Source of the DNA: a virus
Virus record (IMG/VR): IMGVR_UViG_3300032053_000045
Coordinates: 9,818 to 73,817 of that record
Length of the DNA: 64,000 nt
Reading direction: 5' to 3' (one strand)
In this document: piece after piece, positions 26,454-36,314 of the stretch
Position numbering within the stretch: the first letter of the stretch is position 1
Layout of the letters: each line of letters starts with the position of its first letter
Notes under the pieces: generated by a model
The model's input: only the letters and a program-made list of their open reading frames with translations
Told to the model about the DNA's origin: nothing
The model's database searches: none
Translations under genes and position numbers: made by a program

Positions 26454-28222
26454 GTAAATTATTGGGAGGGAATTTTTCTCTTGATATTTCCAAGGCCGTG
26501 GAAGGTAAAATCAATCCGGCAAAGAAAAAACGGATAATCGAGGGATACATGACAACTCCCGCTCTCGATCTAGAAAATGAAGTAACAGACAGCAAGGCGT
26601 ATCCTGAAGCTGCCGAAGAATTGAACCAACATGTTCATGATGGATCTCCAATTCCTATTTTTATTGAGCATCGTAGGAAAGAAATTTCTTTACCTGTTGG
26701 GAGAATTATTTCTGCTGAAGCAAAGCCTAATGGGATATGGTTTAAGGGAGAGATCGCAGAAGGTAAAATAGCAGATCCTGTTTGGGAGCTGATTGAGCAA
26801 GGGATGTTAAACGGATGCTCAATGGGTGGAGATGCCTTAGAAACAGTTCCTGATTTTGATCCTGAGAAAAACAAAGAATTCAAAAGAATAAAAAAGATGA
26901 CTATTAGAGAATTATCATTGACAGGGCTACCTGTTAATCCTCAAGCAGTTTTCTCTATGGCAAAATCTTTAAATATCGAAGAAAGGAAGGTGAGATCAAA
27001 ATTGGAAAAATTAGAAAAAGCAATAGAAACAGAATATGATATTAGTACTATAGAGAAAGCTGTTAATGATGGAAAAATTGATGAAGAGAGTATGAAGAGA
27101 ATAAAATCAGCTCTCGATGGATTAGAACAACTTATTGGAATAAAAACTGATGAAACTCCAACGAAAGAAGAGGCTCCCAAAGAAACAGAAGTAGCAGAAA
27201 AACCCACTGAAGATAAAGGTAAGTTAGATCAAATTTTAGAGAAAATAAATATGCTTGTTGAAAATAAGGAAAAACCTGCAGAAAAACCCGAAGAAACTAT
27301 AGAAGAACCAAAAACTACAGAAGCCCCCAAAGAAGAAAAAGAAGAAGGAGGTGAAATGAATATGGCAAAAATGAAAGATATTGATGAAAAAGAAGAAGAT
27401 AAAAAAGAAGCAGAAACACTGAAATGTAAATCTTGTTCGATGGTCTTCGAAAAAAGTGAAGATGAAGATTACGAGGTTAAATTCTGTCCTAAATGTGGTA
27501 AACCATTCGGCGACGAAGAAGTTGAAGGCGAAGTTGATGCTGAAGATAGTGAAGATGGAGAGGAAATCGTTGACGAGGAATCAGTTGACGAAGAGCCGAT
27601 GGATGAAGAGGAAGACATTGACGATGAAGAATTAGATCTCGATGAAGAAGGCGAAGATGACGAGGATGAATTCGAAGATGACGAGGAAGATGATGTTGAA
27701 ATGGTAAAGTTTGTTGATGATGAGGATGAAGATGACGAGTTTGAGGAAGATGAGGAAGATGAGGATGATGAGTCCTTTGAAAAGAATTTAGAAATTCTTC
27801 AGTCAAAACCGTCAAAAGATTCCGGTCAGTCAATTTCAACATTCAAGGGAGATTATATCAAGCCATCAACTGGTAAACGGACTAATCCTGCTGACACCAC
27901 AGAGCACGAACATCCGAAGCCATTCAAGCCGTTAGAGACTGGAGTTTCAGGTGAACAGTTTGCTAACTATGGTAAGGATCGTACAGAGAAATCTATGAGT
28001 TCGTCCAGAATTAAGAGGATGGTTGAGAAAGCTGTTAAGGATTCCGTAGAAGAGACAATTAAATCTTCTATTGAAAAAGCAATTGACGCTTCTAATGTTG
28101 AAAGAAAAGTTCTTGGTCCGATTGAGAAATCTCAAAATGCGACTCCTGATACTATCAGTGATGACAGAGTTTTCGCTCGTGCCCTTTCCCAAGGTCTGTC
28201 TGATCCGATCCCGATGGAGTAG
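26450..28222 (+). CDS. Prohead maturation protease (HK97-type) fused to acidic scaffold-like region
   Basis: IEGYM...D...E, FIEH....PVG, G.W.KG.I, G.S.GG, ELSL...P.NP.A; then coiled coil, Zn ribbon and D/E tract. Confidence 0.9.
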   Translation: MSKLLGGNFSLDISKAVEGKINPAKKKRIIEGYMTTPALDLENEVTDSKAYPEAAEELNQHVHDGSPIPIFIEHRRKEISLPVGRIISAEAKPNGIWFKGEIAEGKIADPVWELIEQGMLNGCSMGGDALETVPDFDPEKNKEFKRIKKMTIRELSLTGLPVNPQAVFSMAKSLNIEERKVRSKLEKLEKAIETEYDISTIEKAVNDGKIDEESMKRIKSALDGLEQLIGIKTDETPTKEEAPKETEVAEKPTEDKGKLDQILEKINMLVENKEKPAEKPEETIEEPKTTEAPKEEKEEGGEMNMAKMKDIDEKEEDKKEAETLKCKSCSMVFEKSEDEDYEVKFCPKCGKPFGDEEVEGEVDAEDSEDGEEIVDEESVDEEPMDEEEDIDDEELDLDEEGEDDEDEFEDDEEDDVEMVKFVDDEDEDDEFEEDEEDEDDESFEKNLEILQSKPSKDSGQSISTFKGDYIKPSTGKRTNPADTTEHEHPKPFKPLETGVSGEQFANYGKDRTEKSMSSSRIKRMVEKAVKDSVEETIKSSIEKAIDASNVERKVLGPIEKSQNATPDTISDDRVFARALSQGLSDPIPME

Positions 28223-28534: not shown

Positions 28535-31500
28535 ATGCGTACATCATTCAATTTTGGGTGATGTTAAACTCTACTATATCGGAGGAAGGTTTAAAAGAAA
28601 CTAATAAATCAATTCCGAGGAAAGACTGGAATACTCCAGAATCCGTAGAGACTATACGTAGAGCTTCCTGAAAAAGGAAGAAGATATAGTCCAAACTGAA
28701 GATATAAATAAAACTTCAGAGGAATTCAGAAATGAAATTCCCGCCTTGAAAAAAGGTTAATAAGTAATAGAATGTGAAAAAGCTTAAATCTGTGTTTTGG
28801 AGCTTTTAAAATTTGGCTATATGCTGGGACCTCCAATACTGGACAATCAGCAGGAAAGACTCTTAAAAAAGAGAATCCTCAGAGACTATACGCCAAACAT
28901 CTCGTACGCATTCCAGGAAAAAGATGATGATATAGTCCGTTCTATATGGTGACATATAGAGGCAAGTAGAAATATTTGCCCGCCTTGTAAAAGGTAATAA
29001 AAGTAACACGAAGTGAATACAGTTGCCGGAACGGGTGGAGATACCTTGATCCCGCGTTTGGCGGATTTTTAATTTGGTCCGCTTTAAATTGAGCTAAATC
29101 GGTGAACATCTTTTTCTAAAGACAATACCGAGGAAAGACTGGAATACTCCAGAATCCGTAACGACTATACGCTCAACATTGGAATAAAATCCATAAAGAT
29201 ATAGTCTAAACTCCAACTATAGATAAAATTGGAGAGGAATTCAGAAATGAAATTCCCGCCTAAAAAACTTTAGGTTATTAAAGTAATAGAATGCAAATCA
29301 TTCCGTTTTTAAAATAAGCGGAATTCAAATTGGGCTAATTCGGTAAAAACCTGAAAGAGAAAATTTTTCAGGCAATACCGAGCTAAATTCAAGAACAATC
29401 TTGATAAAAGTGTAGAGACTATAAACCCGATGCTAATTCCTTTAATTAGTAATGATATAGTCCAAACTGCAAATATAAAAATTAAATTGCAGAGATAAGA
29501 AGAAATTCTTATCCGCCTCTTAAACAAGAGGTTATAAAAGTAATAAAATGTTATCCGGCAGAAATCGTGTTTAAATATGCGACTTTGAGTAGAGATGCTC
29601 ATCGAAAATCTCGTAAATTGCTGGAAAATCTTAACAGTCTACTAAACTACAAAGTAATTTCTTTAAAATGAAATAAACTTGAATGTTTAAAAATTAGTAG
29701 AATTAGACAATCAGCAGGGAAGCTCGAAAGAGAACCTTCAGAGACTAGAGACGAGACATCTGAAAAGATGATGATATAGTCCGAACTTCAAAGAGATTTG
29801 AAGAGTTCTGTTTTAAAAAAACAGAGAGTAACACAATTGATATGCGCCAATTCCTCCCAACATTCGTATTAACTTGCGACTTTGAGTAGAAATACTCATT
29901 GAAAAATTCCGTAAATTGCTGGAAACCCCGAGTATATTTTGGTACAGAAAAATTAAATATTCTGTAAAAATCCAAAATTGCGGACAATCAGCAGCCAAGC
30001 TTCCTCTAAGGAAGAAGGTTCAGAGACTAAAGACGGAACTTCTGAAAAGAAGATGATATAGTCCGATCTTTATAGCGATATAAAGAGTTGATAGAGAGAA
30101 AATATTTTTCTATCAGAATAACAGAAATGAATGCCGACCCAAGTTTATAGATTTCCTAAGTTAAGTGCTGGTTGATTTTATTGCAGCCACTTCAAGAAGA
30201 AATTCTTGTCGAATAAGCAACTATATCGGGGGAACTCTTCAAGAGAATAAATCTGAAGACAATCCCGACGGAAGAGAATACCAGAAATGGTGGAAAAAAC
30301 TCCCGCTAGAGACTACACGTTGCAACCTTGAATAAAGGTTATGATATAGTCCAAACTGCATAGTGATATGCAGAGGAATTCAGAAATGAAATTCCCGCCT
30401 AAAAAACTTTAGGTTATTAAGTAATAGATTGAGCAATGTTTATTATGTTGGTGAGGCGATTGCGGCTCCAGAATCGGCAATGAGTACCGGAACCGTGGAA
30501 TTGACTGCGAAGAAATTAATGGTTGATTTTAATGCAGCCACTTTTGAGAGAAATCTCAATTGAAAAATCTTACTATATCGGTGAAACTCTCGAAAACTAT
30601 GATATAATATAACTATGGGGCTAAGAAGAGCTTTATAACCTCTTCGAAGGTGCCTAAATCACCAAGCCCCTTCTTTACCTATTTAGGAGGTAATAAATGA
30701 ATAAATTTAGAAAATGTTTGTATTGTGATAATTTAGTTAAAGTAAATAAACCTCATATTGCCAGAATTCTTTGTCAAGAATGTAAAGATAAGAAAAACAT
30801 TCCTATTTTTAAAGATATTCAGGGGATAGAAAATGTTAATTATGTGATTTGCAAAATTTGCGGATATAAAAGTACGCAATTATTTTGGCATATTAAAAAA
30901 CATCACAAATTAACAGGTAAACAATATAGATCTTTATTCCCTGGAGAAAAATTAATGATTTCTTGGAATTTAGGATTAACATCTGAAACAGACATTAGAG
31001 TTAAGAAAAATGCTGAAAATTCTGGTAAGGTTAGAAAAGGAAAGAAAAATCAAAAATCCAGTGAAACTAAGAAGAAAAAATTTAAATTGGGTTTATTAAA
31101 AATTTGGAATAAAGGCTTAACAATAGAAGATCAAAGAGTTAAAAATTATACAAAAAATCGTGAAAAGACAATAAAAGAAAAATTTGCTTCTGGTGAATTA
31201 GTTGTTTGGAATAAAGGACAGACAAAATATTCACACCCAAGTATAGCTAAGTCAATAATAACAAGACGAGAAACGATGGCAAAAATTTAGCTTTAGATCC
31301 TCATTATTATGATCTTGACTTTGGTGAACCAAGTAATTTAGATTTAGCTCTATATGCCGAGTTAGAAAAACATAACATAAAATATATTCCACAATATTAT
31401 TTCGTTTGTTCTGAATTAGAAACAATAATAGATGCGTTTATAGAACCAAATATTTGTGTTTATGTAGATGGTACATATTGGCATAGTCCTGGTCATATGA

Positions 31501-34500
31501 GAAGTAAAGATAGTTATCAAAAACTTATTCTAAGAAATAAAGGATTCATTCCTTTAAGATTTTCTGAAGAATATTTTTATTCAAACAAACATTTAGTTAT
31601 AGAAGAAATTAAAAAAGTTATTCGAGACAATACCGAGGCAACCTGAGAAATCAGAGAGTCCGTAGAGACTACACGTAAGAATCCTATCTAATCACATAGG
31701 AAAAAGATATAGTCCGAACTCTATAGTGATATAGAGAGATAAATAGAAATATTTACCCGCCTCGAAAGAGGTTATAAAGTAACAAATTTGTGCCCTCGCC
31801 ATCAGTGCCGAGTTACAAGAGGATAAATTGTTGTCCTCTAAAAATTGTATTAAAACGGTGAAACGCTTCGAGAATATATGTTATAATTAATAGGGGCTAA
31901 GATTGACCTCATGAATCAATCGACGGTTGCCCTAACAACCAAGCCCTTCTTTACCTTAGGGGGTATGAAATGAAGAATGATAAGATTCAATGTCCAATTT
32001 GTAAAAATTGGTATCATAATTTGACAGGAAAACATTTGCAAAAACATGGTTATAATTCAGTAAAACAGTTTTTATTAGATTATCCTAATTCTAAAACAAT
32101 ATCTAATAGAGTATCAAAAATTCTTTCAAAACATTGGCATAAGAAATTAAAACCAATGCGTAAAGAAATAGGTAGAAAATCTAGTGAGACTAAAAAAGAA
32201 AGATTTAAACTAGGTTTATTGGAACCTTGGAATAAAGGATTAACTAAAGAGACTGATAAAAGAATTAAGAAAAATGGTGAAAGTGTTTCTAATACATGGA
32301 AAAGAAAATCAAAAAGGGAAAAGAAAAAATATGGAAAAGTCGTCAGCAAAAGATTAAAAGGTAGAAGTTGGAAAGATCTTTGGGGTGAAGAACAAGCAGA
32401 AATAAGAAGTGAAAAACAAAGTAAGAGGTTGAAAGGAAAAGGTAGTCCTTTTTATAAAGATGGAAGATGTTCAGATAAATTAAATTATATTAATGATTAC
32501 GGACCAAATTGGCCAAAGATAAGAAAGGCTATTTATAAAAGAGATAATTGGACTTGTCAAGAATGTTTGGCAAAAGATAGAAAAGTACTTTGTCATCACA
32601 TAATAGATTATTTTGATTTTCCGGTAGAAAAAAGAAAAGAATTTGCTCACCATGGATTGAATTTAATTACATTATGTTTTTCTTGTCATTCAAAATTAAT
32701 TAACAAAAAGATTCTTAAAGTCAATACCGTGAGGTATTTAGAGATTACAAAATCTAAGTATCTTGTAACGACTACGTATTCAAAGGCAACTTTGAGTGCT
32801 ACGTACAACATGCTAAAAAGCATGATGATATAGTCTAAACTGTAGACATAATTCATAAACTGCAGAGATAAGAAGAAATTCTTATTCGCTTATTTCAGAA
32901 TTAGGTTTTCTAAATAAGTTATTAAAGTAATAAATTGGCAATTTTGCCGATTGTGCCAGTTGTCAGAGATGACATGGCCAAAGCGTTCGCGCTGGCAGAA
33001 GAAGATGTGTTCGAATTGATGAGCACCTTTTGAGAGAAATCTCAATCGAAAATTCTACTATATCGGTGGAACTCTTTGTAATCTATTTGAAATCTATGAT
33101 ATAATATAACTATGGGGCTAAGTTTGAATTAATTACTCAAACGAGGTTGCCTGAACAACCAAGCCCCGTTACTTTTCAGGAGGTAAATATATGGTTTTTC
33201 CAAAAGGAAAAAAGTTTCCAAAATCTGGTATTGAAAAATTAAAAAAGACTTTCAAAAAACGTAAAGAATTAAAATTACACATAGGAACGAAGAAGATCAA
33301 TGAAAAAAAGATTAATTATTGTTTAAATTGTGACAAAGAAATAATCGTTTCTGTAAATGGGTGTAATAAGGATAAGAAATTTTGTTCTTCAAGCTGCGCT
33401 TCTTCTTACAATAATAAAATTAGATGGAGCGATAATGAAAAGAAACAAAATTGGATAAGAAAAATCAATGAGACAAGAAAAAATAATAATAGTTATCATA
33501 CTGGAAGTTTAAAAGCAATTCAAACCAGAAGACAAAATAATAATTTATATAGTTGGAACACAGGTTTAACAAAAGAAACTGATGAACGTTTGAAAAAAGC
33601 TAGTGAAAAACAAAGTAAAGATAGGAAAGGAGTTTCTTGGGTAGATCGCTTTGGAGATGAAACAGCAAAAGATATGAAAAGACAAGCTAGACAGAGATTG
33701 ACAGGTATGATTATCGACGGAAAATTAGAATTAAATTATGGTTTAGAATGGATAAAAATCCGAAAAGAAATTTTAATTAGAGATAATTACACTTGTTGTG
33801 TTTGTAATGTTGAAAAAGCTGAAAAAGTTCATCACATTGTTCCATATAGAATTATTAAAAAACATGAGAAATTTTTATTAGTATCAGTTTGTAAAAAATG
33901 TCATTTAAAAATAGAACCAAAGAATATACCGACGGAAGAGATTACCTTTGAATCGTATATAAATTATTATATAAATAAAGGTGGAAAACTCCCGCTAGAG
34001 ACTACACGTAGAACCCCTATAACGGGTGATGATATAGTCCGAACCTCAGATATAAAATAAAACTGAGGAGTTATCTAGAAATAAGATAACCTCTTAAGAA
34101 ATTAAGAAGTAACAAAATTGTTATCAATGGTAACACGGCTGGTGCTTTTGCGGCTAACGACCCTAAGTTTGCATGGATATGAAAAATATTTAGTGCCTTA
34201 CAAGAGAAATCTTGTATAGAAAATTCAGAGAATTGCTGGAAGATCCTAAGAGCTTGTTTAACTACAAAGTAGATTCTGTAAAATGAATCAAGCTTGATAG
34301 TTTGAAAATAAACAAGATTGGATAATCAGCAGGGGAGCCCGAAAGGGAACCTTCAGAGACTATGTACTGAACTTCCTGAAAAAGGAAGATGATATAGTCC
34401 GTACTTTAGGGAAACTTAAAGAGTTCTGTTTAATAAAACAGAGAATAACACAATAGTCAATGGTATTCGGATTTCAGGAACTGGTACAGATGTCAATGCT

Positions 34501-36314
34501 AGCTCGGCTGCACTTACGCTCGCGAACATCTCGACTTCAATTCAAAATTTGGGCGTCTACGGACGCGACAAATCAGAATTGCTGCTCGTCGTTTCGTTGA
34601 GAGAAGAAAGCAGACTGCGTCAGCTACTTGGTATCAATCTGGCGGTCAACGCACTTGGCCTTACCGGTACGGCACTTCCGGGAGAGATCGGTAAAGTCTG
34701 GGGGGTTCCTGTAGTTGCTACAAACCTCTTACCTACGACTCTTGCCCCGGGAACCTTGTCTGTGGCCCTGATGATCAACAGAAATTGTGCAGTTATTGGT
34801 GGAAAAATTCGCCAATGTAAAAACTCGTAAATTCGGTGGAACTCCTGCAAAGGACAATACCGAGCCAAGCTTAATAGAGAAACTCTCGAAATAGAATTTT
34901 TTTATTATGAAGGTGTAACGACTATACACGAGTCTTCTTTAGAAAAAAGAATGAAGATATAGTCTGAGCTGAATAGTAATATTCAGATGTAGACAGAAAT
35001 GATCTACATTTGGAAGATAAATTCTTCCAAGATAACAGTCTGGATAGAAGGATCTTCACAATCAAGTCCTCAAATACATCTGGGGTCTTATAAAAAACTT
35101 CGAGAATTGCTGGAAGCCTTTAGAGCTTGTTTAACTACAAAGTAACTTCTCAAATGAAGTAAACTTGAATGTTCTAAAAATAAACAAGATTAGGTAATCA
35201 GCAGCCGAGCCCGTGAGGGAAGGTTCAGAGACTATGCACGAAGCATTTGTTAAAAATAGATGATGATATAGTCCGATCCTTGTTGAAAAACAAGCAAATT
35301 TTATTATGGGTCTAAGTTGAGAATAATTAACTCCATGTATAAAATTTTGGAATTAAAAATATGCAGATGAGATTTTGATTAGGTCCGATCAGTTAAAACA
35401 TAATAGCTGCTTCATAAAGAAATTTATGAATGGGACTTGGCTAATTCGGTGAAACTCCAGAAGTGGAAAACACCGAGCTAAATTGAGAAGAGAGTTTCTC
35501 TCTCATAAATGTGTAACGACTATATACCAGGCATCCTAAAAGGATGAAGAGATAGTCTGATCTACAAATATAACCAAATGAAATTGTAGAGTTGGTAATT
35601 CTTATACTTCGTCAATATAAGACAATCCAACACTCAGAAATGAGTTAACAAAATGTACTTGTCGTCGCGTCCGAAAGGATTATGAAAAATTAGTCCGTTT
35701 AGATAGAAATATCTAAATAAAATAATCTCGAAAATTGCTGGAAGGTCATGAGAGTCAAACAAGCTACAAAATGAATCCTTAAATGGATTGAGTTCGAATG
35801 CTTTAAAAATTGTTTGAATTTGATAATCAGCAGCCGAGCCCGAAAGGGAAGGTTCAACGACTACGCCCGAGACATCTCTAAATGAGATGATGATATAGTC
35901 TGATCTTATGGGAAACCTTAAGAGTTGACAGGAAATGTTTCTTGTCAGAATAACACAAATGTGGTTTCGCTATGCAATACGCCGACGCCTCGGTTCGGAT
36001 TATTAATATAAATAGTTCCATTTAAGAGTAATCTTAAATTGCAAACTCAGAGAATTGCTGGAAGGTCCTTAGAGCTTGTTTAACTACAACATAATCTATG
36101 TTATAATAGATAAGTGTGAATGTTTGAAAATAAACAAGATTGGATAATCAGCAGCCGAGCCCGAAAGGGAAGGTTCAGAGACTATGTACTGAGTTTCCTC
36201 GAGAGAGGAAAATGATATAGTCCGATCTCATAGGAAACTATGAGAGTTGTAGAGAGAATATTTAAAAATATTTCATCTGCAGAATAACACAAATGTATTA
36301 ATATCGCACCTTAG
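28535..36314 (+). CDS. Major capsid protein (HK97 fold, 305 aa), split by 16 group I introns
   Basis: join(28535-28548,28775-28785,29014-29066,29294-29306,29551-29568,29840-29867,30130-30172,30432-30523,31791-31824,32938-33010,34121-34174,34457-34800,35043-35070,35364-35393,35656-35680,35962-36000,36296-36314) = 918 nt with no internal stop. AAGGAGG RBS; lies directly after the prohead protease; HK97 motifs GG..IP, VGE, V.L..KKL, IS.EL.ED, ING, GVPVV, ER.GF. Confidence 0.93.
28549..28774 (+). ncRNA. Group I intron 1 (226 nt)
   Basis: P1 acatcatt/gggtgatgt with U.G; P3 ctctac/gtagag; P7 gagact/gatatagtcc; ends aatG. Confidence 0.9.
28786..29013 (+). ncRNA. Group I intron 2 (228 nt)
   Basis: P1 aaaagctt/gagctttt; P3 tttggc/gccaaa; P4 tgctgg/tcagca; P7 gagact/tagtcc. 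Confidence 0.9.
29067..29293 (+). ncRNA. Group I intron 3 (227 nt)
   Basis: P1 gcggat/gtccgc; P3 ttgagc/gctcaa; P7 acgact/tagtct. Confidence 0.9.
29307..29550 (+). ncRNA. Group I intron 4 (244 nt)
   Basis: P1 attccgt/gcggaat; P3 ttggg/cccga; P7 gagact/tagtcc. Confidence 0.9.
29569..29839 (+). ncRNA. Group I intron 5 (271 nt)
   Basis: P1 tcgt/gcga; P3 tctcgt/acgaga; P/Q aattgctgg/aatcagcag; P7 gagact/tagtcc. Confidence 0.9.
29868..30129 (+). ncRNA. Group I intron 6 (262 nt)
   Basis: P1 tcgt/gcga; P3 ttccgt/acggaa; P7 gagact/tagtcc. Confidence 0.9.
30173..30431 (+). ncRNA. Group I intron 7 (259 nt)
   Basis: P1 tggt/gcca; P3 gcaac/gttgc; P7 gagact/tagtcc. Confidence 0.9.
30600..30690 (+). 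promoter_or_regulatory. Intron-internal extended -10 promoter plus RBS-masking pseudoknot
   Basis: TGATATAAT 30600-08; ggggct/agcccc; ggtg-cctaaat-cacc loop pairs with atttagg in atttaggagg. Confidence 0.75.
30697..31646 (+). pseudogene. Intron-encoded endonuclease (Zn finger, NUMOD3, Vsr/DUF559-like), split by a -1 frameshift near 31285
   Basis: ORF 30697-31290 has WN.GLT repeats; the -1 frame 31287-31646 reads ...DAFIEPNICVYVDGTYWH...KD.YQ..IL..KG...LRFSE. Confidence 0.75.
31879..31964 (+). promoter_or_regulatory. Intron-internal extended -10 promoter plus RBS-masking pseudoknot
   Basis: TGTTATAAT 31879-87; ggggct/agccct; ggttg-ccctaa-caacc loop pairs with ttaggg in ttagggggt. Confidence 0.75.
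31970..32833 (+). CDS. Intron-encoded HNH homing endonuclease
   Basis: C..C..H..H finger, WNKGLTKETD, RDNWTCQEC...HHI...NLITLC..CH. Confidence 0.88.
   Translation: MKNDKIQCPICKNWYHNLTGKHLQKHGYNSVKQFLLDYPNSKTISNRVSKILSKHWHKKLKPMRKEIGRKSSETKKERFKLGLLEPWNKGLTKETDKRIKKNGESVSNTWKRKSKREKKKYGKVVSKRLKGRSWKDLWGEEQAEIRSEKQSKRLKGKGSPFYKDGRCSDKLNYINDYGPNWPKIRKAIYKRDNWTCQECLAKDRKVLCHHIIDYFDFPVEKRKEFAHHGLNLITLCFSCHSKLINKKILKVNTVRYLEITKSKYLVTTTYSKATLSATYNMLKSMMI
33097..33183 (+). promoter_or_regulatory. Intron-internal extended -10 promoter plus RBS-masking pseudoknot
   Basis: TGATATAAT 33097-105; ggggct/agcccc; ggttg-cctgaa-caacc loop pairs with ttcagg in ttcaggagg. Confidence 0.75.
33191..34060 (+). CDS. 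Intron-encoded HNH homing endonuclease
   Basis: C..C...FCS..C, WNTGLTKETD, RDNYTC..C....VHHI.P...LVSVC..CH. Confidence 0.88.
   Translation: MVFPKGKKFPKSGIEKLKKTFKKRKELKLHIGTKKINEKKINYCLNCDKEIIVSVNGCNKDKKFCSSSCASSYNNKIRWSDNEKKQNWIRKINETRKNNNSYHTGSLKAIQTRRQNNNLYSWNTGLTKETDERLKKASEKQSKDRKGVSWVDRFGDETAKDMKRQARQRLTGMIIDGKLELNYGLEWIKIRKEILIRDNYTCCVCNVEKAEKVHHIVPYRIIKKHEKFLLVSVCKKCHLKIEPKNIPTEEITFESYINYYINKGGKLPLETTRRTPITGDDIVRTSDIK
34175..34456 (+). ncRNA. Group I intron 11 (282 nt)
   Basis: P1 gcat/gtgc; P3 ttcag/ctgaa; P/Q aattgctgg/aatcagcag; P7 gagact/tagtcc. Confidence 0.9.
34801..35042 (+). ncRNA. Group I intron 12 (242 nt)
   Basis: P1 attggt/gccaat; P3 actcgt/acgagt; P7 acgact/tagtct. Confidence 0.9.
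35071..35363 (+). ncRNA. Group I intron 13 (293 nt)
   Basis: P1 aagtcct/gggtctt; P3 cttcg/cgaag; P7 gagact/tagtcc; divergent 3' (P9) region. Confidence 0.85.
35394..35655 (+). ncRNA. Group I intron 14 (262 nt)
   Basis: P1 cagt/gctg; P3 cttgg/ccagg; P7 acgact/tagtct. Confidence 0.88.
35681..35961 (+). ncRNA. Group I intron 15 (281 nt)
   Basis: P1 ggat/gtcc; P3 tctcg/cgaga; P7 acgact/tagtct. Confidence 0.9.
36001..36295 (+). ncRNA. Group I intron 16 (295 nt)
   Basis: P1 ggat/gttcc; P3 actcag/ctgagt; P7 gagact/tagtcc. Confidence 0.9.

Follow-up and report, generated by a model that had tools for sequence, protein, structure and literature searches.

Related group I introns at guide-matching sites in a phage major capsid gene with sixteen interruptions

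We analyzed a stretch of 64,000 nucleotides (hereafter, the window) that is part of a 73.8 kb virus record of IMG/VR (IMGVR_UViG_3300032053_000045; estimated completeness, 59%). Positions 28535-36314 of the window contain an HK97-fold major capsid gene composed of 17 exons and 16 group I introns, which are here named I1 to I16 in their order along the gene. Two families of small group I introns appear to have colonised this capsid gene 16 times. Judged from the sequences, the same intron lineages are found at different, look-alike sites that match the intron guide, and the copies recombine. The explanation that we prefer is ectopic copying of introns to guide-matched sites together with recombination, whatever the route of copying, and we give it a probability of about 0.65. 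This gene and its relatives are a rare natural source of sequence-level evidence on the way in which group I introns arrive at new sites.

The capsid homologues retrieved with the largest exon (PF05065, about 306-340 amino acids) are uninterrupted, and a tblastn comparison mapped every one of their residues colinearly to 17 short pieces of the window. The exon-intron junctions were set by the open frame, the T preceding each intron, and the G as the last base of the intron. Both bases were present in 16 of the 16 introns, and precise excision restored a frame of 305 amino acids, encoded by a spliced sequence of 918 nt, with introns that sum to 6,862 nt. The spliced protein was identical to the uninterrupted homologue P0003 at 266 of 306 aligned positions (87%). 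The shortest exons have 11, 13, 14, and 18 nt. An initial annotation of this DNA had placed the outer bounds of the interrupted region at 28549 and 36295, and the junctions fixed by splicing are the same.

A P1 helix with a U.G pair at the splice site was present in all 16 introns, with 4-8 bp on the exon side and the guide at intron positions 9-22. The Rfam model RF00028 detected 10 of the introns at its gathering score and 14 at E<=5e-6, all within 28538-36244. I9 and I10, which are interrupted by open reading frames (ORFs), gave no match to RF00028, and their group I identity comes from homology to their class A siblings. The P7 word GATATAGTC was found 15 times in the window, always within the capsid gene. 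Two interspersed types of P4, already pointed out in the initial annotation, divide the introns as listed there and align to P4/P4' of the Rfam model; they define class A (I1, I3, I4, I7, I8, I9, I10, I12, and I14) and class B (I2, I5, I6, I11, I13, I15, and I16). The sequence blocks quoted in that annotation were all exact, occurred in the introns named, and were absent from the rest of the window. On these features, the interruptions are real group I introns whose exact removal restores the frame, and they are predicted to be self-splicing ribozymes. The exons and introns are as follows:

Exons 1-6, 28535-28548, 28775-28785, 29014-29066, 29294-29306, 29551-29568, and 29840-29867, plus strand: capsid gene, spliced frame
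Exons 7-12, 30130-30172, 30432-30523, 31791-31824, 32938-33010, 34121-34174, and 34457-34800, plus strand: capsid gene, spliced frame
Exons 13-17, 35043-35070, 35364-35393, 35656-35680, 35962-36000, and 36296-36314, plus strand: capsid gene, spliced frame
I1, 28549-28774, plus strand: class A, 226 nt, P1 of 8 bp, Rfam score 45.1 bits
I2, 28786-29013, plus strand: class B core lacking the long P5 arm, 3' tail similar to class A, 228 nt, Rfam score 81.6 bits
I3, 29067-29293, plus strand: class A, 227 nt, after GGAT, Rfam score 39 bits
I4, 29307-29550, plus strand: class A, 244 nt, after CCGT, Rfam score 49.1 bits
I5, 29569-29839, plus strand: class B, 271 nt, after TCGT, Rfam score 82.6 bits
I6, 29868-30129, plus strand: class B, 262 nt, after TCGT, Rfam score 83.3 bits
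I7, 30173-30431, plus strand: class A mosaic, 259 nt, after TGGT, Rfam score 58.1 bits
I8, 30524-31790, plus strand: class A, 1267 nt, after TGGT, with endonuclease; Rfam score 35 bits for the 3' half
I9, 31825-32937, plus strand: class A, 1113 nt, after GGAT, with HNH endonuclease ORF at 31970-32833 (PF01844)
I10, 33011-34120, plus strand: class A, 1110 nt, after GTGT, with HNH-like ORF at 33191-34060 (PHROG HNH families)
I11, 34175-34456, plus strand: class B, 282 nt, after GCAT, Rfam score 68.6 bits
I12, 34801-35042, plus strand: class A, 242 nt, after ATTGGT, Rfam score 73.1 bits
I13, 35071-35363, plus strand: class B, 293 nt, atypical 3' tail, Rfam score 74 bits; ends taken from the spliced frame
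I14, 35394-35655, plus strand: class A, 262 nt, after CAGT, Rfam score 62.5 bits
I15, 35681-35961, plus strand: class B, 281 nt, after GGAT, Rfam score 82.1 bits
I16, 36001-36295, plus strand: class B, 295 nt, after GGAT, Rfam score 76.8 bits

The 3' tail of I2 resembles that of I8, and the Rfam match to I12 starts 41 nt too early when compared with the junction fixed by the spliced frame. The introns gather at the gene ends: the first 433 coding nt hold 11 of them, and the last 141 hold 5. Endonuclease ORFs were found in I8, I9, and I10 only, and the other 13 introns have none, as first noted.

The words that precede the introns are repeated. GGAT is found before four introns (I3, I9, I15, and I16), TGGT before three (I7, I8, and I12), and TCGT before two (I5 and I6). 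This makes 10 pairs with identical tetramers, whereas a random choice of 16 T positions in the coding sequence would give 2.1 (P=0.0009). The assignments made earlier from inspection of the sequence were therefore accurate, and TGGT before I12 is added to them. When only the guide domain was compared, the nearest neighbours were I5-I6, I7-I8, and I15-I16. Within each of these pairs the tetramer is the same, the cores are kin to other introns, and the two introns with the common guide domain are adjacent in the gene. For TCGT and GGAT, the adjacent pairs I5/I6 and I15/I16 sit at the two nearest occurrences of the word. The sibling sites are alike over 4-6 nt upstream of the intron only, and have nothing in common downstream.

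The comparison included 25 capsid-homologue loci that were fetched, and further ones among at least 236 loci with matches to exact intron patterns; these loci are designated with an L and a number. Relatives were searched with nhmmer profiles. RF00028 detected only one class B intron in the related loci L164, L010, L140, and L143, indicating that class A is poorly covered by this model. Junctions in the related loci were taken from spliced alignments, refined by the rule of a T before and a G at the end of the intron, and read by eye. The capsid introns found were:

L008: one intron, at codon 82 of this gene
L006: two introns, at codons 24 and 110
L012: two introns, one in a lineage-specific insert and one at codon 222
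L013: three introns, at codons 102, 126, and 212
L010: three or more introns, at imprecise sites
L164: at least six introns in 5.4 kb, at codons 24, 33, about 63, 102, 110, and more
L141: one intron, at codon 21
L140: two introns, at codons 33 and 222
L263: one intron, at codon 222
L161: one intron, at codon 26
L143 and L007/L133: one intron each, at two sites in the last 20 codons

The capsid genes nearest to this one (L001, L002, L003, and P0003; 83-87% amino acid identity) have no intron. The relatives carry from zero to at least six introns each, at no fewer than 11 capsid sites beyond those of this gene, and with the 16 described here the insertion sites of the clade number at least 27 over some 305 codons. 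The initial annotation had proposed looking for presence or absence of the introns in related capsid genes: among the relatives listed, the sites of this gene that are also occupied are codons 26, 102, and 126 only. I9 has same-site orthologues in L013 and L164, with the same guide, and I10 has one in L013. No same-site orthologue of the 13 ORF-less introns was present among the matches listed. The intron of L161 at the site of I3 (codon 26) carries an endonuclease and is unrelated to I3. The 344-nt exon at 34457-34800 is intron-free here, and relatives use codons 212 and 222 inside it.

Third codon positions were saturated when compared with the nearest intron-free relatives (about 41% identity), and sibling introns of this gene are 75-80% identical, a range close to that of the introns common to several phages (75-81%). 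The contrast between sibling identity and saturated third positions indicates that the introns spread after the host genes had split. The introns thus appear to move faster than the host genes diverge.

The relatives also bear on the relation between guide and exon. I12 lies after the exon word ATTGGT and has the guide GCCAAT, and the codon-222 introns of L012, L263, and L140 lie after ATCGGT and have the guide GCCGAT; I12 and the codon-222 intron of L012 show no difference in the 27 nt that follow the guide. The word ATCGGT is present at codon 222 of this gene, without an intron. I4 and the codon-33 introns of L164 and L140 lie after TCCGT words that are 8 nt apart, and have post-guide sequence in common. 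Codon 33 (exon 5, 29551-29568) is CGG in this gene and CGT in the intron-carrying relatives, implying that the U required for the 5' splice site has been lost here. At the orthologous site of I10, the exon word and guide are GTGT and GCAC in this gene versus GCGT and GCGC in L013, i.e., a compensatory pair. The other intron of L012 joins an I12-like guide segment to a class B core, which suggests that guide modules are exchanged between the classes. Collectively, guide and target seem to travel together across the related introns of this gene and of related phages.

Trees were built with 114 sequences for class A and 32 for class B. In the class A tree, I1 and I3 were sisters (support, 100/94); I10 grouped with the same-site intron of L013 (100/93), and I7 joined them (100/96); I9 grouped with the same-site introns of L164 and L013 (100/100), and I4 was sister to that clade (98/95); and I12 was placed with the codon-222 introns of L263 and L012 (99/90). 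In the class B tree, I11 paired with I16 (90/94), the two being 80% identical over 245 nt, and I5 with I6 (84/77). A class B clade of 14 members contained six introns of the window, the capsid introns of L143, L007/L133, and L012, and the introns of L063, L112, L083, and L108; I2 was placed in another clade of this class. Among the matches listed, the best BLAST relative was in the same gene for 8 of the 16 introns (I1, I3, I4, I5, I7, I11, I13, and I16) and outside it for I8, I9, I10, I12, I14, and I15, with I2 and I6 tied. Within the same set of matches, the closest relative of I14 is external, in L216, and the core of I15 is closest to the intron at the 3' end of the capsid gene of L143.

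The initial annotation had suggested that introns were copied within the gene to sites matching their guide. This is supported in part. The best relatives agree with spread within the gene for the eight introns whose best match lies there, and the trees agree with it for the sister pairs I1/I3, I11/I16, and I5/I6, with I4 and I7 branching beside the I9 and I10 lineages. Copying to guide-matching sites is consistent with I5/I6 and I15/I16, with I12 compared to the codon-222 introns, and with I4 compared to the codon-33 introns. It does not extend to I9 and I10, the relatives of which occupy the homologous site in other phages, the very position that would speak against spread within the gene.

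Exchange between introns, also proposed in that annotation, was borne out statistically. The introns have 73 exact runs of at least 14 nt in common, compared with 0.5 in shuffled introns. The longest are 49 nt in I3 and I7 (tail), 35 in I15 and I16, 33 in I11 and I16, and 33 in I1 and I3, and a 25-nt exact block is common to I4 and I9. In a GENECONV-style permutation test on runs of identical polymorphic sites, the global P was <=0.0005 for I1-I3, I1-I7, and I3-I7, 0.011 for I4-I9, 0.025 for I11-I16, and 0.07 for I15-I16. The introns were then compared by domain, i.e., guide domain (P1-P2), P5 arm, core, and tail. The guide domain of I5 was nearest to that of I6, and its core and tail to those of I11; in I16, the guide domain was nearest to I15, and the arm and core to I11; and in I7, the 5' 21 nt match I8, the core goes with the I10 lineage, and the tail matches I3. 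The common guide and TGGT of I7 and I8 had been taken as a sign of copying; the likeness is confirmed, and the guide sits in a swapped 5' module, not in a copy of the whole intron. Together, these data indicate that segments (guide domain P1-P2, P5/P6 arms, core, and P9 tail) have evidently been exchanged between introns.

The 35-nt block of I15/I16 and the block of I1/I3 recur in other phages with 1-3 changes, and these two are best read as conserved cores, not as products of recent exchange. No other phage was found to have the tail and P2 blocks, and an exact search of IMG/VR with the I1/I3/I7 tail block gave no match beyond the record of the window itself. I1, I3, and I7 (28549-29293 and 30173-30431) form direct repeats, with exact runs of 29-49 nt separated by 0.5-1.3 kb. 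If such repeats recombined, essential exons would be deleted, and defective genomes are thus expected at some rate.

In the mechanism that we propose, new copies would arise through ectopic insertion and survive only behind exon words that match their guide. The guide would then be tuned to its new exon, and gene conversion between copies would continue, owing to their arrangement as direct repeats separated by a few hundred bases. The endonuclease-bearing I8-I10 may spread by ordinary homing at fixed sites and probably carry neighbouring ORF-less introns in their co-conversion tracts, which would aid persistence of the latter. As for the ectopic step, intron RNA could reverse-splice into the abundant transcript of the capsid gene, with cDNA synthesis and recombination as the subsequent steps. 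We favour this route because no other process described so far combines the choice of a site that matches the guide with insertion of exactly the intron; it would explain the specificity of 4-6 nt, the exact insertion at many sites, and the crowding of introns in the late transcript of highest abundance. Kin introns whose sites differ but have the guide-complementary 4-6 nt in common are found in I5/I6, I7/I8 (as a module), I15/I16, I12/codon 222, and I4/codon 33. Taken on its own, reverse splicing as the ectopic route has, in our estimate, slightly less than an even chance.

Several observations weigh against copying to guide-matched sites, or against its RNA route. For I8, I12, I14, and I15, the nearer kin are introns of other phages and not those of this gene, and I9 and I10 have their same-site orthologues elsewhere. 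A single clade of the six class B introns was rejected (approximately unbiased test, p-AU 0.028), and when I15 was left out it was not (p-AU 0.095). The placement of the closest relatives within this gene is provisional, since it applies to the external matches listed and these required exact patterns, and trees of mosaic sequences average segments of differing history. Siblings that are only 75-80% identical show no recent copying event. Selection for splicing would give the same match between guide and exon after any route of insertion, and module swapping alone could explain the likeness of the I7 and I8 guides. Moreover, no RVT_1 (PF00078) reverse transcriptase was detected in the record of this phage (73.8 kb, 59% complete) or in three related ones, a complete record of 178 kb and two others of 152 kb and 113 kb, so that the RNA route would need a host enzyme.

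In one alternative, site-specific lineages circulate in the phage population by homing or allele recombination at co-infection, and this genome has amassed 16 of them, the likeness within the gene coming from later gene conversion between neighbours. The orthologues of I9 and I10 in L013 and L164, the endonuclease intron at the I3 site of L161, the external affinities of I8, I12, I14, and I15, the rejected class B clade, and gene conversion that is demonstrably active all suit it. However, across a set of at least 15 related capsid genes only 3 of the 16 sites were found occupied, the intron that L161 has at the I3 site is no kin of I3, and 13 introns lack an endonuclease. We regard this explanation as unlikely, and the presence of the same lineages at different look-alike sites in different phages implies that, even under it, ectopic copying took place somewhere in the gene family.

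Somewhat less likely, in our view, is ectopic insertion at the DNA level, by an endonuclease cutting at relaxed or look-alike sites or by illegitimate or microhomology-mediated repair, where only insertions behind a guide-matching word would survive because the capsid gene is essential. Three introns do encode endonucleases, and no reverse transcriptase was detected in the own and three related records. The first 9 nt of I16 equal the start of the following exon, and at the start of the related introns of L143 and L007 there are a repeat of 7 nt and a copy, 36 nt long and diverged, of the 3' exon, all of which could be repair scars. Nevertheless, no known DNA mechanism recognises both intron ends, making exact insertion at 27 or more sites hard to explain, and the likeness of sibling sites, 4-6 nt upstream and none downstream, is far below what a homing endonuclease target needs. 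The repeat is found in only one of the 16 introns, I16, and its first 4 nt are explained by P1-extension/P10 pairing. In the repeat itself (36001-36009 equal to 36296-36304), the other 5 nt are not explained in this way. Read-through of unspliced I16 would give a near-normal C-terminus, ..RIININSSI* versus ..RIINIAP*.

An assembly artefact, in which the contig would unite strains with fewer introns joined at common exons or repeated intron blocks, is very improbable: the record is from a metagenome, exons 8, 10, and 12 (92, 73, and 344 nt) have a length at which chimeric joins could form, and repeats reach 49 nt, but the exons are perfectly colinear and in frame with none lost or duplicated, most are 11-54 nt long and hence shorter than a read, which places neighbouring introns on one molecule, and other contigs of the clade are also multi-intron (at least six in the 5.4 kb of L164).

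Under ectopic copying by the RNA route, the capsid transcript of this clade might act as a sink for reverse-splicing transposition, with swaps of guide modules between cores opening new exon words. This extension is tentative, and we would lean against it at present. If true, it would offer the first natural protein-coding system in which reverse splicing can be tested site by site, with unoccupied matching words as predictions, e.g., ATCGGT at codon 222 of this gene. The 27 or more sites, the siblings, the guide-target covariation, and the swapped guide modules give concrete predictions that reverse-splicing assays in vitro and surveys of populations can address.

The classical phage group I introns are those of T4 td, nrdB, and sunY, SPO1, and Twort orf142 (three introns), some of them mobile via HNH or GIY-YIG endonucleases. 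The introns described here are likewise small group I introns in a phage gene, some with endonucleases. The classical ones number one to three per gene, at conserved homing sites, whereas 16 are found here in one gene. Class B introns reached at most about 72% identity over about 130 nt with GenBank phages, in introns of Staphylococcus, Vibrio ICP1, and Streptococcus phages; class A differs from the classical introns in its weak Rfam scores and in having no match among GenBank phages with I3 as the query. A similar number of group I introns in one protein-coding gene is known from fungal mitochondrial cox1, where up to about 18, many of which carry or have lost endonuclease genes, interrupt a gene of about 1.6 kb. 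The cox1 introns are mostly large, ORF-bearing, site-specific lineages, in contrast with this viral gene, where 13 of 16 are ORF-less, measure 226-295 nt, and belong to two families.

Among uncultured phages, the major capsid gene is known to be interrupted by group I introns. In crAss-like (Zeta/Delta) and Jug phages of the gut, such introns, some with endonucleases, lie in the major capsid and other core genes (PMC7886860, PMC12880540). A crAss-like capsid gene in five fragments was called intron-rich, with a maximum of 14 introns per genome (PMC7886860), and Jug phages have a mean of 18.5 introns per genome of 360-400 kb (PMC12880540). Here, 16 introns lie in one coding sequence of 918 nt, with exons down to 11 nt, and, as far as the accessible text of these reports goes, this appears to be the densest intron load for a phage gene in the reported literature. 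The accessible parts of both papers contain no analysis of sibling sites or guides (PMC7886860, PMC12880540). Since capsid-gene group I introns were already known, what is new is that a single coding sequence of 918 nt holds 16 of them, and that sibling relations and the exchange of guide modules can be seen among these.

Spread by reverse splicing has been proposed for the group I introns of nuclear rDNA (PMC1299323; reviewed in PMC3984707). A 2014 review of bacterial group I introns reported no direct evidence for this route, which needs reverse transcription, and considered rDNA the best circumstantial case (PMC3984707). The capsid introns are like the rDNA introns in that kin occupy different, often neighbouring, sites of one highly transcribed gene, the target is chosen by 4-6 nt complementary to the guide, and the evidence is circumstantial. 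They differ in that the host is a protein-coding phage gene, not rRNA, in the guide-target covariation visible between phages, in the extensive module exchange, and in having no obvious reverse transcriptase.

Regarding the surroundings of the gene, all genes of the window are on the plus strand, and the G+C content is about 33%. The capsid gene is flanked upstream by a prohead protease (PF04586) and downstream by a Mu-F-like head protein. The proteins of this phage are singletons in the protein collection, which thus offered no near-identical strain for comparison, the largest exon searched as protein against GenBank phages gave no match, and an exact IMG/VR search with exon 16 gave none beyond the record of the window. 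All introns that Rfam detects in this record or in the relative of 152 kb are located in the capsid gene. DNA matches of the flanking gene to jumbo phages at 27512-27771 fell in an acidic low-complexity stretch, and homology was rejected. This D/E-rich stretch (27512-27772) lies in the C-terminal half of the prohead protease/scaffold ORF and yields spurious nucleotide matches of 66-73% to Pseudomonas, Erwinia, Xanthomonas, and Bacillus jumbo phages.

The endonuclease gene of I8 is in two overlapping frames, 30697-31290 (DNA-binding) and 31251-31646 (DUF559/PD-(D/E)XK-like). Over 30697-31646, they encode 197 amino acids with zinc-finger and NUMOD-like repeats, and then 131 amino acids of the DUF559/PD-(D/E)XK-like part; the Pfam matches are weak, under the curated cut-offs. 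The gene is either a frameshifted pseudogene or is decoded via frameshifting. The endonuclease ORFs of I8, I9, and I10 have a common leader, with a TATAAT-like box followed by a conserved, structured-looking segment, at 30597-30625 and 33094-33122 (29 nt identical between I8 and I10) and at about 31880-31960. The same leader precedes endonuclease genes in related phages (L143:1445-1500, L006:20135-20169), in one case outside the capsid gene.

Capsid genes interrupted to this extent escape gene callers entirely. In L007 (893-1950), L133, and L143 (1430-2620), a class B intron lies within the last 20 capsid codons, with an endonuclease ORF between the 5' splice site and the guide, i.e., in the P1 loop. 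The L007 intron starts with the diverged 36-nt copy of the C-terminal coding segment, followed by a stop codon, and gene callers consequently report the unspliced ORF as a complete capsid protein.

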